From IMG/VR virus record IMGVR_UViG_3300045988_112927, positions 56,519-120,518 of that record: DNA of 64,000 bases; one strand, 5' to 3'. The notes beneath the pieces are model-generated. The model had not been told where the DNA came from and did no database searches. It worked only from the letters and a program-made list of their open reading frames with translations. The stretch is from a virus. The translations under genes were made by a program, and so were the position numbers. Positions 55,121 through 61,864 of the stretch are shown piece by piece. Position 1 is the stretch's first letter. Every line of letters begins with the position of its first letter.

Positions 55121-55981
55121 ATGGCTATACAAGTTGGTAGCATTATTCTTAGCTCTGATATGCGGAGTTGGTATACAAGATTGAATAGTATCATATCAAA
55201 GTATGGCGGAAGTATTGCTCAAATGGGAGTACCTGCCGCAGGAAAAATTGCTCAAGCTAGTGATGTAAATACTATTGTTTATAAATTAAATGAAATGAAA
55301 AGTGATAAATATTTAGGAAATGACCAAAGTTTATATACAACTTATGGTACTGTTGGTGTTGGTACTATAATTTATGCTTATCAAGGTCAAAGATTGAATA
55401 CAGTTATTTCTAATTTAGAGACAATTAAATGTAGAAATGATGCCACTAAAATGAATGGAAATACTAATAATATAAAATCTAATACCTGGTCTCAAGGTGC
55501 CAATACTAATGGTTGGTCACAAGGCGCAAATGGTAATGGTTGGTCACAGGGAGCTCATGGTAATACTTGGTCTCAAGGCACTCATGGAAACGGCTGTAGT
55601 CAAGGTGGTCATGGTAATGGCTGGTCACAAAGTAATAATGGTAATGGTAACGGTCGTTCTTATTGTTCAAATGGTAAAAAGACTGTAAGTGGAAATTATA
55701 ATGGTAATCAATGCGCTTATTGGAGTAATAGCGGTACAAATGGAAATGGTTGTAGCCAAGGCGCAAATTATAATGGATGGTCTCAAGGAACTAATTATAA
55801 TGGATGTAGTCAAGGTGTTAATTATAATGGATGGTCTCAAGGAGCAAAATCTAATACTTGGTCTCAGGGGGCAAAATCTAATACCTGGAATCAAGGCGCT
55901 AATTCAAATGGATGGACTCAATGGACCAATCAAAATCAAACTCAAGTAGATATTTATCATGCTAGAGCGACAATAGGTTAA
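55121..55981 (+). CDS. repeat protein: ~120-aa N-domain plus ~15 tandem 9-10-aa repeats N(G/T)(W/C)SQG(A/T)xxN; candidate radical-SAM substrate (RiPP-like precursor)
   Basis: Repeats read directly (GWSQGANTN, GWSQGANGN, GCSQGGHGN, ...); first gene of operon with two rSAM/SPASM genes 15 bp downstream. Confidence 0.5.
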   Translation: MAIQVGSIILSSDMRSWYTRLNSIISKYGGSIAQMGVPAAGKIAQASDVNTIVYKLNEMKSDKYLGNDQSLYTTYGTVGVGTIIYAYQGQRLNTVISNLETIKCRNDATKMNGNTNNIKSNTWSQGANTNGWSQGANGNGWSQGAHGNTWSQGTHGNGCSQGGHGNGWSQSNNGNGNGRSYCSNGKKTVSGNYNGNQCAYWSNSGTNGNGCSQGANYNGWSQGTNYNGCSQGVNYNGWSQGAKSNTWSQGAKSNTWNQGANSNGWTQWTNQNQTQVDIYHARATIG

Positions 55982-55995
55982 AAAGGAGTTTATAT

Positions 55996-57390
55996 ATGCC
56001 AGAAGTAAAAAGAAGAGAAAGAAGTACTGCAGTGTTTTATACTTGCGGCACTTGTAATTTAAAATGCCATTATTGTGGTATTGATAAAAATCCAATTCTT
56101 GTACAAATTGATAAGGCATTAGAGAAAAGTTTTGAAGGAGATTATTATTATAATCAACTTCTTAAATATTTTCCAGACCCATGTCAATTAAGAAGAATTG
56201 AAACTTGGGGAGGAGAACCTTTCTTAAAAATGGAAAGAATTCATCCATTAGTTAATAAGGTAATAGAACATTATCCTTATTTTGACCAAATGTTTTCTTC
56301 TACCAATTTTTCATATCCAGAATGGCCAGATAAATTTTTTGGATTAATGAAACAATTTGAAGCTTATGCTCCAAGAAAATTTGATTATTTTTTACAATTA
56401 TCTTTAGATGGTCCAACTAATATAAATGATTTTAATAGAGGAGAAGGCGTAACTGAAAAATGTCGAAAAAACTTTCAAGCTTTAGTAAATAGATTACCAG
56501 TTGATTTACCTTCAAATGTTACTCTTAACATTTATTTTAAACCAACTTTAGATAATACTTCTATAAAACAATTAGATACTAAAGAAAAAATTATCGAATA
56601 CTATAGATTTTTTGAGGAATGGTATGCAAAATTATTTGATTTGAAAATGTCTAATTTGAAACCTCAATTATCTGTTCCTAATACAGCAGTACCTTCTCCT
56701 GTAACTAAAGAGGATGGTATAGCTTTCGCGCAATTATGTAAGAATTGCCGAGAAATTGAGAAAGAAAATAAAGAAGTTCATTATTTAAGATTTTATGATG
56801 CAATCACTCCATATGCAGCGTTTACTCAAGATTGTCCTCATGCTCATTATTCTCATGGTAGTTGCATATGCGGAACTGGTTCATTTTTATTGGGCTTTAT
56901 GCCAGATGGCTTAATTTCTACTTGCCATGAAGGTTTTACTCATTTTTATGAAGAGTATAAAAGAGCAGCATTGAATTCAACAAGAGTAGAAGATGGCGCT
57001 ACAATTAACTTTGATAAATTTGTTAATGAACAAGGCTCTAAGTATTGTTTAACTGAGAAACAATATGAAGAATATGAGAAATACATTGATAATTTTATTA
57101 AAGATGGTACTACTGCTAGATTGGGCAATATGGCTGGTCTAATTATGGTATTAGCTATGGCAGGTCAAATTGATAGTAAATATTTAGATGAAAGAAATGC
57201 GTCTGAAGCAGCGGTATTTTTACAGAACCATACCTCTTATTGTTTAAAAGATAATTATAATACTACTGGAAGTTTTATTACAATACCAGTAGGTATTCCT
57301 AAGTTATTATTGAATGGTGCAAAAGAATACATTCAAGAATTAGATAGAGATTCAAAAATAGATGCAAGGGGGTTTGGAAATAATGGATAA
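55996..57390 (+). CDS. radical SAM enzyme with SPASM-type C-terminal Cys cluster
   Basis: CGTCNLKCHYC (CxxxCxxC), ETWGGEPF (GGE motif), C-terminal CPHAHYSHGSCICGTG...STCHEG. Confidence 0.6.
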   Translation: MPEVKRRERSTAVFYTCGTCNLKCHYCGIDKNPILVQIDKALEKSFEGDYYYNQLLKYFPDPCQLRRIETWGGEPFLKMERIHPLVNKVIEHYPYFDQMFSSTNFSYPEWPDKFFGLMKQFEAYAPRKFDYFLQLSLDGPTNINDFNRGEGVTEKCRKNFQALVNRLPVDLPSNVTLNIYFKPTLDNTSIKQLDTKEKIIEYYRFFEEWYAKLFDLKMSNLKPQLSVPNTAVPSPVTKEDGIAFAQLCKNCREIEKENKEVHYLRFYDAITPYAAFTQDCPHAHYSHGSCICGTGSFLLGFMPDGLISTCHEGFTHFYEEYKRAALNSTRVEDGATINFDKFVNEQGSKYCLTEKQYEEYEKYIDNFIKDGTTARLGNMAGLIMVLAMAGQIDSKYLDERNASEAAVFLQNHTSYCLKDNYNTTGSFITIPVGIPKLLLNGAKEYIQELDRDSKIDARGFGNNG

Positions 57391-60082: not shown

Positions 60083-61003
60083 ATGATACATTATTATTGT
60101 CCAGGATTTGTAGAAAGTCAAAAAGCATATAAAATTTTATTTTGGTTAAGGGATAACGCTTCTCAATGTTTTTATGAAAATGTCCAAATTTCAAAAATAT
60201 ATGGATGTTTTCCTAATATGATTTGGAATGGTGGAAGTTATTGGTTCGGACCTTGTTTATCAAGAAATCAAATAATTGATTATTTTGAATGGTATTCACA
60301 TCAAAATGTTCAATTACAATTAACTTTTACAAATCCAATATTAGAAGAAACAGATTTGTATGACAGATATTGTAATGCAATATTAGAAATAGCAAGTAAT
60401 TATGATTTTGTTGAAGTGCTTGTATCATCTGATATATTAGAAAAATATATAAGAAGCAAATACCCTAATATAAAAATTGATAAAAGTATTATAGCAACAA
60501 CAAGAGATAGAGAGAGTGTAAATGATTCTTTGAAAGGATATTTACAAAATCTTGAGACATATAATATGTGCGTTTTACCTCGAAAACATGGAAAAAATTT
60601 TGATTTCTTAAATCAAATTCCAGAAGATAAAAGAAATAGATTTGAAATTTTAGCAACAGACCCATGTCCGATTAATTGTCCAAGATTATATACTCATTAT
60701 GAAGATATGGCTAAAGCTCAATTGTGGATTCCAGGAGGAGTAGAACATAGTCATTGTACAACTATTCATCCTGACAATCCATTTAAGCAATGGCAATATA
60801 GAAATCAAAGAATATCTTATGAAGAATTGCATAAGTATGAAGAATTAGGTTTTACTGAAATTAAATTAAGTGGTCGTACAGATATGATTCAAATGATTAT
60901 TACTGTAGTTCCTTATTTAATAAAACCTGAATACCAACAAGATGTATATGCAGCTTTATTAAATGATTTCAAAGACTATTTAATTCAGCCAGATTTTTCA
61001 TAA
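60083..61003 (+). CDS. peptidase-U32-family-like protein (UbiU/UbiV/RlhA/TrhP-type fold), paralog 1
   Basis: YYCPGF / MIWNGG / LQLTFTN / VLVSSDILEKYIRSKYPNIKI / EILATDPCPINCPR align by eye with U32 N-terminal motif order (ELLxPAG, GADAVYxGG, VxLNT, ADALIVxD..L...YP, ExFxxGxxCxxxxGxC). Confidence 0.4.
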   Translation: MIHYYCPGFVESQKAYKILFWLRDNASQCFYENVQISKIYGCFPNMIWNGGSYWFGPCLSRNQIIDYFEWYSHQNVQLQLTFTNPILEETDLYDRYCNAILEIASNYDFVEVLVSSDILEKYIRSKYPNIKIDKSIIATTRDRESVNDSLKGYLQNLETYNMCVLPRKHGKNFDFLNQIPEDKRNRFEILATDPCPINCPRLYTHYEDMAKAQLWIPGGVEHSHCTTIHPDNPFKQWQYRNQRISYEELHKYEELGFTEIKLSGRTDMIQMIITVVPYLIKPEYQQDVYAALLNDFKDYLIQPDFS

Positions 61004-61015
61004 AGGAGTGTAATT

Positions 61016-61864
61016 ATGGTATACTACTATTTACCAGGATTGTTTGAGTTTTTCGATTTATATGTAGTATATATGGATATATTCAAACATGAAAAATATA
61101 AATTTAGAAACTGTGAAATAGGTGCAATATATGGGGCACCACACGGAGCAATTTGGAACGGAGGACGTGCGCGAGGAGCTTCATATCCAGACATTGATAA
61201 TGTAAAAGATTGGTCTGTCGGAGAAAATGTTAATTGTGCTTTAACATTTACTAATTGTTTATTAACAGAAGAACATTTAGATAATTTATTTTGTAATGAA
61301 ATAACAAGACGTTTTGAAAGAGAAGAAAATGCTATTATAGTAGAGTCTCCTCTTTTAGAAGAATACATTAGAAAAAATTATCCAAAATATAAAATAGTAT
61401 CTTCAACTACTAAATGCATAAGGTCTATTGATTTATTAAAAGAAGAGTTGGAAAAACCATATGAAAGAGTAGTTTTAGATTATAATTTTAATAAAAATTT
61501 TGATGTATTAAAGTCTTTAGAACATAAAGAAAAATGTGAATTACTTGTTAATGCAGTTTGTTACCCAGATTGTCCAAGAAGAAGAGAGCATTATGAGTAT
61601 ATATCAGCAGATGTTTTGCGGCTTGCGCAACCAGGACCGTTTATTTGCGATGCAATGACAAAGCCGTTATATCAAGCATTAGAAAATACTAACACTATAA
61701 CAGTAGATGCTATTTTTAATGTTTATAATCCTCTTGGTTATCAGCATTTTAAGATTGAAGGAAGAACTGCTAATATAGAAGATTTAATTGAGATTCTTGT
61801 ATATTATACTGTAAAACCTGAATATCAATTAGAGATACGACAAAGACTTAATTTGATTTTATAA
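61016..61864 (+). CDS. peptidase-U32-family-like protein, paralog 2
   Basis: YYYLPGLFE / AIWNGGR / CALTFTN / IIVESPLLEEYIRKNYPKYKI / ELLVNAVCYPDCPRR; paralogous to 60083..61003. Confidence 0.4.
   Translation: MVYYYLPGLFEFFDLYVVYMDIFKHEKYKFRNCEIGAIYGAPHGAIWNGGRARGASYPDIDNVKDWSVGENVNCALTFTNCLLTEEHLDNLFCNEITRRFEREENAIIVESPLLEEYIRKNYPKYKIVSSTTKCIRSIDLLKEELEKPYERVVLDYNFNKNFDVLKSLEHKEKCELLVNAVCYPDCPRRREHYEYISADVLRLAQPGPFICDAMTKPLYQALENTNTITVDAIFNVYNPLGYQHFKIEGRTANIEDLIEILVYYTVKPEYQLEIRQRLNLIL

Follow-up and report, generated by a model that had tools for sequence, protein, structure and literature searches.

A phage cassette of a hypervariable repeat protein and two predicted radical-SAM enzymes as a probable protein-maturation system

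What does a phage do with radical S-adenosylmethionine (SAM) enzymes? Maturation of ribosomal peptides by radical-SAM/SPASM enzymes is known as a bacterial trait that serves antibiotics, signals, and cofactor-bearing subunits, and the question is raised here by seven co-directional genes, g1 to g7, at positions 55121-61864 (+ strand) of a 64,000-nucleotide (nt) stretch of viral DNA, hereafter the window (positions 56,519 to 120,518 of IMG/VR record IMGVR_UViG_3300045988_112927). An earlier note made from the letters of the window (the sequence-only reading) had described these genes as a cassette for a pathway of the RiPP type (peptides made on the ribosome and modified after translation), or for another post-translational or RNA modification, and all seven open reading frames (ORFs) were recovered at these positions on this strand. 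From gene content, motifs, folds, synteny, and transcription-unit structure, we conclude that the cassette is probably a phage-encoded, anaerobic protein-maturation system of RiPP type, expressed as one transcription unit.

We examined the two putative radical-SAM enzymes by alignment with five divergent homologues each. The product of g3 (57362-58879; 505 amino acids [aa]) carries C64-x3-C68-x2-C71 and an SGE motif, and that of g2 (55996-57390; 464 aa) carries C20-x3-C24-x2-C27 and WGGEP; in both alignments these motifs are invariant. In g3 the SPASM signature is also complete and invariant (C336, G347, C354, C401-x2-C404-x5-C410-x3-C414, and C433), and by its motifs g3 is a true radical-SAM/SPASM enzyme. 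The further conserved Cys residues of g2 (C156, C251, C292, C310, and C416) do not form a CX2CX5CX3C motif, and g2 is, on the same kind of evidence, a radical-SAM enzyme whose auxiliary site is smaller and twitch-like rather than a full SPASM domain. Of the two radical-SAM/SPASM enzymes named by the sequence-only reading, then, g3 with its seven-Cys SPASM fits the description, while g2, with CX3CX2C plus five scattered Cys, fits its radical-SAM half. Beyond the cluster motif, no similarity between g2 and g3 was detectable.

Searches with profile hidden Markov models (HMMs) yielded matches for both proteins, none of which reached its Pfam or NCBIfam cut-off. Against Pfam PF04055, g3 scored 20.2 bits (cut-off 29.5), and g2 matched only Fer4_12 (20.5 bits versus 22); against the SPASM model TIGR04085, g3 scored 18.4 (cut-off 27). 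The best NCBIfam matches of g3 were PapB (4.7e-11, from the radical-SAM core to SPASM), the nif11 maturase, and QhpD, all below cut-off, the equivalog scores being 42.5 bits versus 340 for PapB and 27.4 versus 453 for QhpD; g2 matched a twitch-domain radical-SAM family (2e-10, below cut-off). Matches to phrog_1802 were at about 1e-12 to 1e-13 (g2, 1e-12). Profile searches of the PDB gave marginal matches to 5wgg (CteB; 5e-3) for g3 and to 9gm3 (7.5e-3) for g2, and single-sequence PDB searches with g2 and g3 gave no match. Since all scores fall below their cut-offs, the radical-SAM/SPASM assignment rests on motifs and not on HMM membership; the nearest named families of both enzymes are peptide or protein maturases throughout. 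The g3 family comprises about 426 clusters at 90% identity, nearly all of them unannotated. One member, in a Faecalibacterium-associated phage contig (L027:9349-11820; fetched loci are cited by L numbers), is an 823-aa product split near the CX3CX2C region by an intein with a LAGLIDADG endonuclease.

The adjoining g1 (55121-55981; 286 aa) proved to contain the roughly 15 tandem repeats that had been read in it. Arrays of a 27-bp (9-aa) repeat lie at 55480-55587 and 55745-55929, and the protein holds about 15 N-G-[W/C]-S-Q-G-x-x-x units. Its N-terminal domain (55121-55465, aa 1-115) is predicted to be three-helical and ends with the invariant I-K-C-R-N, while the variable region (55466-55981) consists of two blocks of ~9-aa repeats around a conserved centre, SYCSNGKKTVSGNYNGNQCAYWS, and a C-terminal motif, T-Q-V-D-I-Y-H-A-R. 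In the AlphaFold2 (AF2) model, the N-terminal domain shows three helices at a predicted local distance difference test score (pLDDT) of 50-72 and the repeat region is disordered (pLDDT ~24); with a whole-protein pLDDT of 38, the model was too poor for a fold search.

A search with the N-terminal domain found 119 representative clusters, and in all of them the domain occupies residues 1-115 of proteins of 150-380 aa. Neither g1 nor its family had a Pfam, NCBIfam, or PHROG match, and no NCBIfam precursor family matched g1. The ends of these proteins are conserved: [IV]xC[RK]N closes the N-terminal domain in 98 of 127 family sequences, and the C terminus is nearly always T-x-I-D-I-x-[N/C], with Glu in place of Asp in two members and Asn in a few. 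Between the ends, the tail is ~56% Asn/Ser/Gly/Thr, many members have an aromatic-rich centre between repeat blocks, and the repeats are hypervariable even among close relatives. The only universal Cys of the family is that of KCRN, and the C-terminal acidic residue is near-universal. Conserved ends enclosing a hypervariable middle are the pattern expected of a modified substrate. The sequence-only reading had also taken the alternation of W and C at one repeat position to indicate two cross-link chemistries, a suggestion that the family does not bear out: tail Trp has a median of 1 and is high only in the closest relatives of the window, tail Cys runs from 0 to 34 with a median of 5, other members have N, D, or T at the position that W or C holds here, and both radical-SAM genes are always kept. 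An unusual member, P0242 (380 aa), has an extreme alternating-Cys run (CSCNCDDCYCYCSCDCDFCSC...) and, after it, a Hint domain (Pfam Hint_2 at 4e-5, slightly under the cut-off of 28.4 bits).

We then compared 41 fetched loci with g2 and/or g3, comprising 27 found by g3, g2-alignment, and exact-protein searches and 14 (with both genes) from a scan based on the U32-like genes described below. The 27 loci, a few being the same contig fetched again, came from IMG/VR, from metagenomes, and from metagenome-assembled genomes or isolates of Bacillota (Faecalibacterium, Roseburia, Oscillospiraceae, Lachnospiraceae, Clostridium, and Bacilli). In each of the 41 loci that has both genes in range, g2 and g3 adjoin one another, at identities of 35-100%. 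A g1-type gene stands beside them in nearly all loci whose neighbours were read, upstream in each case except L032, where it is downstream; a remnant, L029, has none. The sequence-only reading had put forward co-occurrence of the seven genes as a check; for g1, g2, and g3 it was seen in nearly all loci with these genes in range, and a g1-type gene lacking radical-SAM neighbours, which that reading would have counted against itself, was found in no locus where such neighbours were in range. The core of the cassette recurs in many uncultured gut phages and prophages, and every context seen was a phage or prophage, from 40-kb prophages to 360-kb phages, including phages in which TAG is recoded. 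TAG is read as sense in eight loci (L016, L021, L022, L023, L027, L031, L033, and L034), also inside g1, g2, g3, and U32-like genes, and in L016 and L027 the in-frame TAGs occur in g1 only and not in the enzymes; suppressor tRNA(CTA) genes were found at L001:6367-6454, L021:505-575, and L024:238-328.

The genomic settings of the module vary. The window, L001, L014, L024, and L033 carry it in a tRNA island, but in small Oscillospiraceae prophages and prophage-like elements of high GC (L002, L003, L025, L028, and L030) it lies between tail-fibre and lysis genes, so that linkage to tRNA genes, to which the earlier reading had drawn attention, is not a property of the module. In these small elements, a tail/baseplate protein (phrog_521, 4e-44), a 130-132-aa tail-collar fibre (phrog_1780, 2e-18), and one or two small ORFs ending in 'LWIDT..W' precede g1, which is followed by g2, g3, a 170-aa g4-like ORF, a 100-aa ORF, holin-like ORFs, and an endolysin (1.6e-57). 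In L018, two fibre-like ORFs lie directly upstream of g1, and in L040 (361 kb) the module is placed among large ORFs and a lysin. These settings fit either a structural tail-fibre role or cargo in known hot-spots.

Of the remaining genes, g4 (58818-59174; 118 aa) overlaps g3 by 62 nt and g5 by 32 nt and encodes a ~100-aa domain that could be aligned across 11 loci, with the homologue downstream of g3; no Pfam, NCBIfam, or PHROG family matched it, and judged by this alignment g4 belongs to the conserved core. The sequence-only reading had called g5 (59143-60078; 311 aa) GT2-like. The gene at the same position in other lineages is a Pfam-confirmed GT2 (L027, 2e-16), and although g5 had no direct Pfam match, hhalign aligned the whole of it with the syntenic GT2 group (302 columns, 98.1% probability, E 1e-13). 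The homology is upheld, but the 'DD' and the first Asp of DxD are gone, and g5 is, as predicted from this alignment, a full-length degenerate GT2 (GT-A) homologue. Canonical GT2 genes occur in L001, L021, L024, L027, and L033, degenerate ones in the window, L005, and L014, and YcaO genes (Pfam 8e-30) beside g1 in L027, L021, and L041. One or two U32-like genes accompany the module in the window lineage, L014, L021, L022/L031, L023, L040, and L041. GT2, YcaO, and U32-like genes are lineage-variable accessories.

The last two genes, g6 (60062-61003; TTG start, with the ATG at 60083 as the likely start from homologues) and g7 (61016-61864; 282 aa), had been proposed to be paired U32-like paralogues. 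This was confirmed by their 31% identity to each other (E 5e-31) and by the structure of g7, whose AF2 model is a TIM-barrel (pLDDT 95) with the U32 peptidase Mk0906 (5d88) as its only significant PDB match in Foldseek (E 1.5e-6, probability 1.0, TM 0.54/0.60); its best BFVD match was a phage 'peptidase' (TM 0.64-0.66). A search of the PDB with the g7 sequence profile gave no match, the fold search alone being successful. With Pfam Peptidase_U32 (PF01136), g7 scored 19.5 against a cut-off of 22.4, and 28 of 50 homologues matched (E up to 6e-7). The g7 family conserves C93, E175, C182-x3-C186, C211, R189, H192, Y193, and FKIEGR. It carries a variant of the U32 motif E-x-F-x2-G-[SA]-x-C-x4-G-x-C (CX6C), namely E175..C182-x3-C186, and its four conserved Cys suit a 4Fe-4S cluster. 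With the family profile, Escherichia coli TrhP reached 6.4 bits in total and 5.5 in its best stretch, UbiU reached ~0.7, and UbiV had no score; the KIEGR segment is the sole part alignable with E. coli TrhP/UbiU, and no sequence orthology to the TrhP, RlhA, or UbiU-UbiV groups was found. By these comparisons, g6 and g7 are a remote U32 clade with a variant Cys motif. In TrhP, E162, C170, and C177 (CX6C) are essential, and the tandem paralogues TrhP1 and TrhP2 of Firmicutes are both required (PMC6599085); prephenate has been reported as the oxygen donor of U32 hydroxylases (PMC10990095).

U32-like genes adjoin the module in at least seven lineages and in varying orders, and g2 and g3 lie within 10 kb in 14 of 44 close IMG/VR U32-like loci. 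Orthologues of g6 stand beside the module in L041 and L040, in L041 directly after g4. The stand-alone contexts described below suggest a U32 pair clearly separate from the module, a reading weakened by L040, L041, and the count of 14 of 44. The linkage is far above chance, yet it is confounded by kinship of the phages and by shared cargo hot-spots. As a separate observation, L041 comes from a widespread 192-kb relative in which genes for a Na/sulfate-type symporter and for a chorismate mutase (CM_2), at L041:1-1656, lie ~6-10 kb upstream of the YcaO-g1-g2-g3-g4-U32 cluster; prephenate is the product of chorismate mutase. In L045, L047, L055, and L061, all from smaller phages, the U32-like gene (~10000-10900) has tail-fibre-like, holin, and lysin genes around it; the copy in L047 overlaps the end of an ORF that contains a short collagen-like sequence, GPQGPAGPS, and in L061 a similar ORF is found ~4.4 kb downstream of the U32-like gene. 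A distant clade (L086-L121; 25-28% identity) is represented by matches at ~9770-10680, near the ends of 36 IMG/VR contigs, mostly of 70-150 kb. Its neighbours in L086, read by eye, resemble an NrdG-type activase, dUTPase, and FolD, with no tRNAs or radical-SAM module near, and this clade probably has a different function. U32-fold 'peptidases' are annotated in a few isolated phages (phrog_5757), and our literature search found no description of phage U32-like genes in tRNA arrays.

Transcription of the cassette was assessed from a promoter-like motif, TTGAY-N15-TGNTATAMT, which is present in 43 copies in the window (from 1752 to 61970) versus 0.06 expected by chance. One copy stands ahead of g1 (55039-55067, +; TTGACT-N-TGATATACT, with an extended -10) and is followed by a strong ribosome-binding site, GAGAGGAGGA; two others (61853-61881 and 61942-61970, +) open the next transcription unit. 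These correspond to the bracketing promoters proposed at ~55040 and 61853, and over the 6.8 kb between them (55068-61852) no motif copy was found, while same-strand spacing elsewhere is typically 0.1-2.6 kb. A terminator-like hairpin (54851-54881, +) closes the upstream tRNA block, and its counterpart in L005, the closest relative of the window, differs in sequence but has a T-run and the same place; no +-strand terminator was found within the cassette. The promoter at 55039 is kept in L005 although the flanks diverge, and those after g7 are kept in L005 and L026. Because motif copies occur at 55039 and 61853 with none between, and are conserved in relatives, a single transcription unit is well supported for the cassette, and g1 to g7 very probably form one operon in the window phage. 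The motif falls into a TTGACA class at 17.7-33.3 kb, ahead of a run of small genes, and a TTGATTTTT..ATAAAAAA class at 34.5-62 kb, a division that looks temporal or regulatory, with a sigma-70-type polymerase reading both.

How might the cassette work? What we infer here is how enzymes and substrate relate, that the links are thioethers, what becomes of the product, and what g6 and g7 do. The product of g1 would be the substrate, its 110-aa helical N-terminal domain serving for recognition or anchoring, and the modified part would be the hypervariable repeats, rich in Asn/Ser/Gly/Cys(/Trp/His), between the KCRN Cys and the C-terminal IDI-x-N. That g2 and g3 act as g1 maturases is suggested by their invariant catalytic motifs, their maturase-like nearest families, and the conserved g1-g2-g3 adjacency, and that g1 is the target is suggested by the placement of YcaO and GT2 genes beside it in other lineages. 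The arrangement is that of a RiPP cluster, with a precursor gene beside a maturase gene, a conserved N-terminal domain, and a hypervariable tail. Together, g3 and g2 would most likely install carbon-sulfur (thioether) or related radical cross-links, starting at the conserved Cys and possibly reaching the conserved C-terminal acidic residue. Thioethers made by PapB and QhpD run from Cys to Asp/Glu, and, in view of this chemistry, the universal Cys, and the near-universal acidic end, a macrocycle from the KCRN Cys to the C-terminal Asp is an attractive, entirely conjectural hypothesis. The small g4 protein may be a dedicated partner, chaperone, or recognition factor; g5 may be a GT2 relic that has probably lost transferase activity; and g6 and g7 may form a heterodimer-like Fe-S pair of U32 type, acting as an oxygen-independent hydroxylase on g1 or on phage or host RNA, with roughly equal odds for g1 and for RNA. 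Most likely, the product would stay a whole cross-linked protein rather than being cut into small peptides, and would serve late in infection, or at the surface of the virion or of the cell.

Several findings weigh against this proposal. Every curated HMM match of g2 and g3 lies far under its family cut-off, AF2 yields no confident fold for the g1 repeats, and no match to PqqD or a RiPP recognition element (RRE), a leader peptidase, or an ATP-binding cassette (ABC) exporter was found among g1 to g7. Three g1-family members (P0161, P0228, and P0245) have no tail Cys, and because of such cysteine-free tails, thioethers in the repeat region cannot be a universal modification. The GT2 catalytic Asp residues are lost in g5 and its close orthologues (IVDDxS to IIASGS, FIDCGD to FLKCGD). 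As for the U32-like genes, those of bacteria are stand-alone paralogue pairs in ordinary chromosomal neighbourhoods; in 9 of the 44 IMG/VR loci, none of which has radical-SAM genes within 10 kb, the U32-like gene lies 5-42 nt from tRNA genes, in arrays of up to 27 such genes, and L035 and L036 are alike in this; about 19 of the 44 loci have neither neighbour, the inspected ones placing the gene among fibre, holin, and lysin genes of smaller phages. The link between U32-like genes and g1 may thus reflect shared cargo hot-spots in related phages and not shared function. The RiPP-type pathway of the earlier reading is partly supported, for the conserved g1-g2-g3 unit and for the U32 fold, but not for the U32 pair as a fixed part of it, which is separable from the module and also stands alone.

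These points bear most directly on an alternative that we hold to be a serious but minority possibility, namely that the cassette contains two modules, g1 to g5 maturing a protein while g6 and g7 are a co-transcribed hydroxylase of RNA (tRNA U34 or rRNA) or of a metabolite, of the TrhP1/TrhP2 or UbiU/UbiV type, serving the tRNA island. Characterised U32 enzymes hydroxylate tRNA U34, 23S rRNA C2501, or ubiquinone precursors, and the requirement for both tandem paralogues in TrhP1/TrhP2 (PMC6599085), the tRNA-adjacent loci and stand-alone bacterial pairs just described, and the many module loci that lack U32-like genes all accord with it. Set against this are the presence of the rare g2-g3 pair within 10 kb at 14 of 44 viral U32-like loci in varied arrangements, the U32-like gene directly after g4 in L041, the remoteness of the family from TrhP/UbiU, with only KIEGR aligning (5.5 bits), the CX3C in place of the essential CX6C, and the U32-like genes that lie among fibre and lysis genes with no tRNAs near. 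Somewhat less probable, and doubtful as it stands, is a version of the maturation proposal with a specific biological role, in which g1 is a virion tail fibre or adhesin whose N-terminal domain docks on the tail, whose repeats are stapled by the radical-SAM enzymes, and whose assembly chaperone is g4; the staples would replace disulfides, which cannot form in the cytoplasm of an anaerobe. In the small prophages, g1 is the longest ORF at the fibre position, after the 130-132-aa collar fibre, and the fibre-like ORFs of L018, the surroundings of the module in L040, and repeats that vary between close relatives as in receptor-binding proteins speak for such a role, as do the in-frame TAG codons of g1 in TAG-recoded relatives, in-frame TAG codons being typical of late genes. 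But no PHROG, Pfam, or structural match ties g1 to a fibre family, the window cassette lies in a tRNA island under the sigma-70-like promoter class of non-structural genes and far from the portal, terminase, and virion genes (1-17 kb), and the gap between fibre and lysis genes is also a classic site of cargo ('moron') genes.

The same proteins can be read as a multi-core RiPP in which each of ~15 nonapeptides is cyclised (by a Trp-x-Gln cyclophane and/or a Cys thioether), cut out, and released at lysis. We consider this improbable: the repeated W-S-Q and C-S-Q units, the leader-like N-terminal domain of g1, and weak matches to the cyclophane maturases GrrM/OscB, XyeB, and YhhB point that way, but those cyclophane-family HMM scores are 12-17 bits versus cut-offs of 310-450, the cassette has no protease or exporter, the repeats have no conserved cleavage sites, and the conserved centre and C-terminal motif favour a single folded product; moreover, Trp is scarce in the family and its position is filled by N, D, or T elsewhere while both enzymes are kept. 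Least probable of all, and by a wide measure unlikely, is that g1 is an unrelated neighbour and that the radical-SAM pair acts on DNA, RNA, a cofactor, or a host protein. The failure of curated HMM membership in RiPP maturase families and the absence of an RRE match would be in keeping with it, but g1, g2, and g3 stay adjacent even where enzyme identity falls to 35-40%, in phages from 40 to 360 kb and over a change of genetic code, g1 has conserved ends with a hypervariable Cys-rich middle, and YcaO and GT2 have been recruited beside it. Returning to the maturation proposal, its fullest form is speculative and in our estimate rather unlikely: gut phages of anaerobic Bacillota would make a hypervariable tail-fibre- or adhesin-like protein with repeats that two radical-SAM enzymes staple covalently in the cytoplasm, one link being a giant macrocycle from the KCRN Cys to the IDI Asp, with lineage-specific YcaO, GT2, and U32 enzymes decorating it and the U32-like proteins being the first oxygen-independent, prephenate-type protein hydroxylases; the chorismate mutase of L041 could be a source of the prephenate.

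Comparison with known systems places the cassette near the ranthipeptide and sactipeptide/SCIFF systems PapB/PapA and CteB/CteA (5wgg), and near QhpD, the cross-linker of a protein subunit, in which a radical-SAM/SPASM gene likewise adjoins that of a Cys-containing substrate. Instead of a peptide of <=50 aa, the substrate family of the cassette has proteins of 150-380 aa with a 110-aa N-terminal domain; the cassette further differs in having two dissimilar radical-SAM enzymes and a small dedicated partner, in its use of U32-type accessory enzymes, in the absence of RRE, protease, and exporter, in its occurrence in phages and prophages only, and in a thioether that is putative. It is, by sequence comparison, similar to a PapB/CteB/QhpD-type cluster yet outside every curated family tested, as the PapB equivalog score (42.5 versus 340 bits) illustrates. 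The triceptide systems (GrrA with GrrM/OscB, XyeA with XyeB) have Gly-rich repeat precursors and also combine a repetitive aromatic-x-x precursor (W-S-Q here) with an adjacent radical-SAM/SPASM gene, but the enzymes of the cassette score only 13-17 bits versus 310-450 with their HMMs, and Trp is not conserved in the g1 family. With the U32 hydroxylases (TrhP, TrhP1/TrhP2, RlhA, and UbiU/UbiV), g7 has in common the TIM-barrel fold and KIEGR, and g6 and g7 are tandem paralogues like TrhP1/TrhP2 and UbiU/UbiV; g7 differs in its CX3C instead of CX6C and in its frequent linkage to a radical-SAM module. Relatives of the cassette carry YcaO and/or GT2 genes beside the substrate gene, as do YcaO and GT2 RiPP clusters (thiopeptide/azoline; glycocins), but the window has no YcaO gene, its partner enzymes are radical-SAM proteins, and its GT2 homologue is without the catalytic Asp, in contrast to the glycocin GT2 enzymes, which S- or O-glycosylate.

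We found no description of the module in the literature or in the annotated phage collection. Here, RiPP-like maturation logic appears as a conserved, apparently phage-restricted module with ~430 enzyme clusters and ~120 substrate clusters, and its candidate substrate is a full-length hypervariable protein instead of a short peptide. Should the product prove to belong to the virion or to act on the host, phages of strict anaerobes would have a new way to harden or diversify such proteins; should it instead be set free at lysis, the human gut would contain a new class of bioactive product encoded by phages. The repeated recruitment of U32-type Fe-S proteins makes protein substrates of the U32 family a testable question, and a cultured Oscillospiraceae isolate that carries the L028 and L029 prophage copies makes the system open to experiment.

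The window is part of a large tailed gut phage that uses the standard genetic code, with a portal gene (11603-13219), a large terminase gene (13603-15342), a virion protein, and a sigma factor; a g7 fragment of 100% identity assigns it to a contig of 190,353 bp. Among 50,697 annotated phage records, neither the cassette nor the 20-44 kb region (megablast) nor g3 (tblastn) had a match, and on this ground the lineage is known only from metagenomes. Stop-codon recoding was suspected from the lack of long ORFs at 18-34 kb and was rejected, as TAG/TGA read-through uncovers none; small genes follow one another there, every one with a promoter to itself. The AT-rich composition that had been reported for the cassette is real (GC of 0.268-0.298 in each 1-kb interval of 56-62 kb, versus ~0.33-0.45 in most of the rest), but it is not unique to it, as GC at 1-3 kb is equally low (0.27-0.30). 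Low GC as a sign of recent foreign origin was set aside in view of the 1-3 kb region and of a cassette and promoter motif common to relatives.

As the sequence-only reading had it, the cassette lies between two tRNA blocks, which ARAGORN placed at 50618-54810 upstream and 62254-63698 downstream. Rfam added a tRNA at 53212-53278 (50.7 bits) that ARAGORN missed, a 121-nt tRNA-like match at 54272-54392 (32.9 bits) that may be a tRNA carrying an insertion, and, at 51138-51262, a Y-RNA-like (YrlA) match that is weak (29 bits versus a cut-off of 69). In L005, ARAGORN called a TGA-reading 'SeC' tRNA (anticodon UCA) at L005:8264-8346, and called no equivalent in the tRNA block of the window. Ahead of the module in four lineages is a conserved trio of genes (window 46775-50051; L041:1824-5134; L005:811-4106; L034:3705-6860) whose products are a protein of 259 aa that contains Cys, an M28-like peptidase of 349 aa (Pfam 1e-5, above cut-off), and a protein of 464 aa. 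In the window, the peptidase gene (47606-48655) is 6.5 kb upstream of the cassette, and in L034 the trio is only ~0.7 kb from g1; the trio may reflect backbone synteny or may belong to the pathway, where it could supply, for instance, a leader peptidase. Finally, a 54-nt element between tRNA-Glu and tRNA-Met (54670-54723, +) matches positions 1094-1147 of the 23S rRNA model with 44-49 bits (E ~3e-12) and with every helix intact; this is the L11/thiostrepton-binding '58-mer' of the GTPase-associated centre of 23S rRNA. It is also present in two related ~195-kb phages (L052:11593-11619 and L054:11591-11617), and such a phage-borne mimic of an rRNA domain in a tRNA array could act as a decoy for uL11 or for factors or antibiotics that bind this site.

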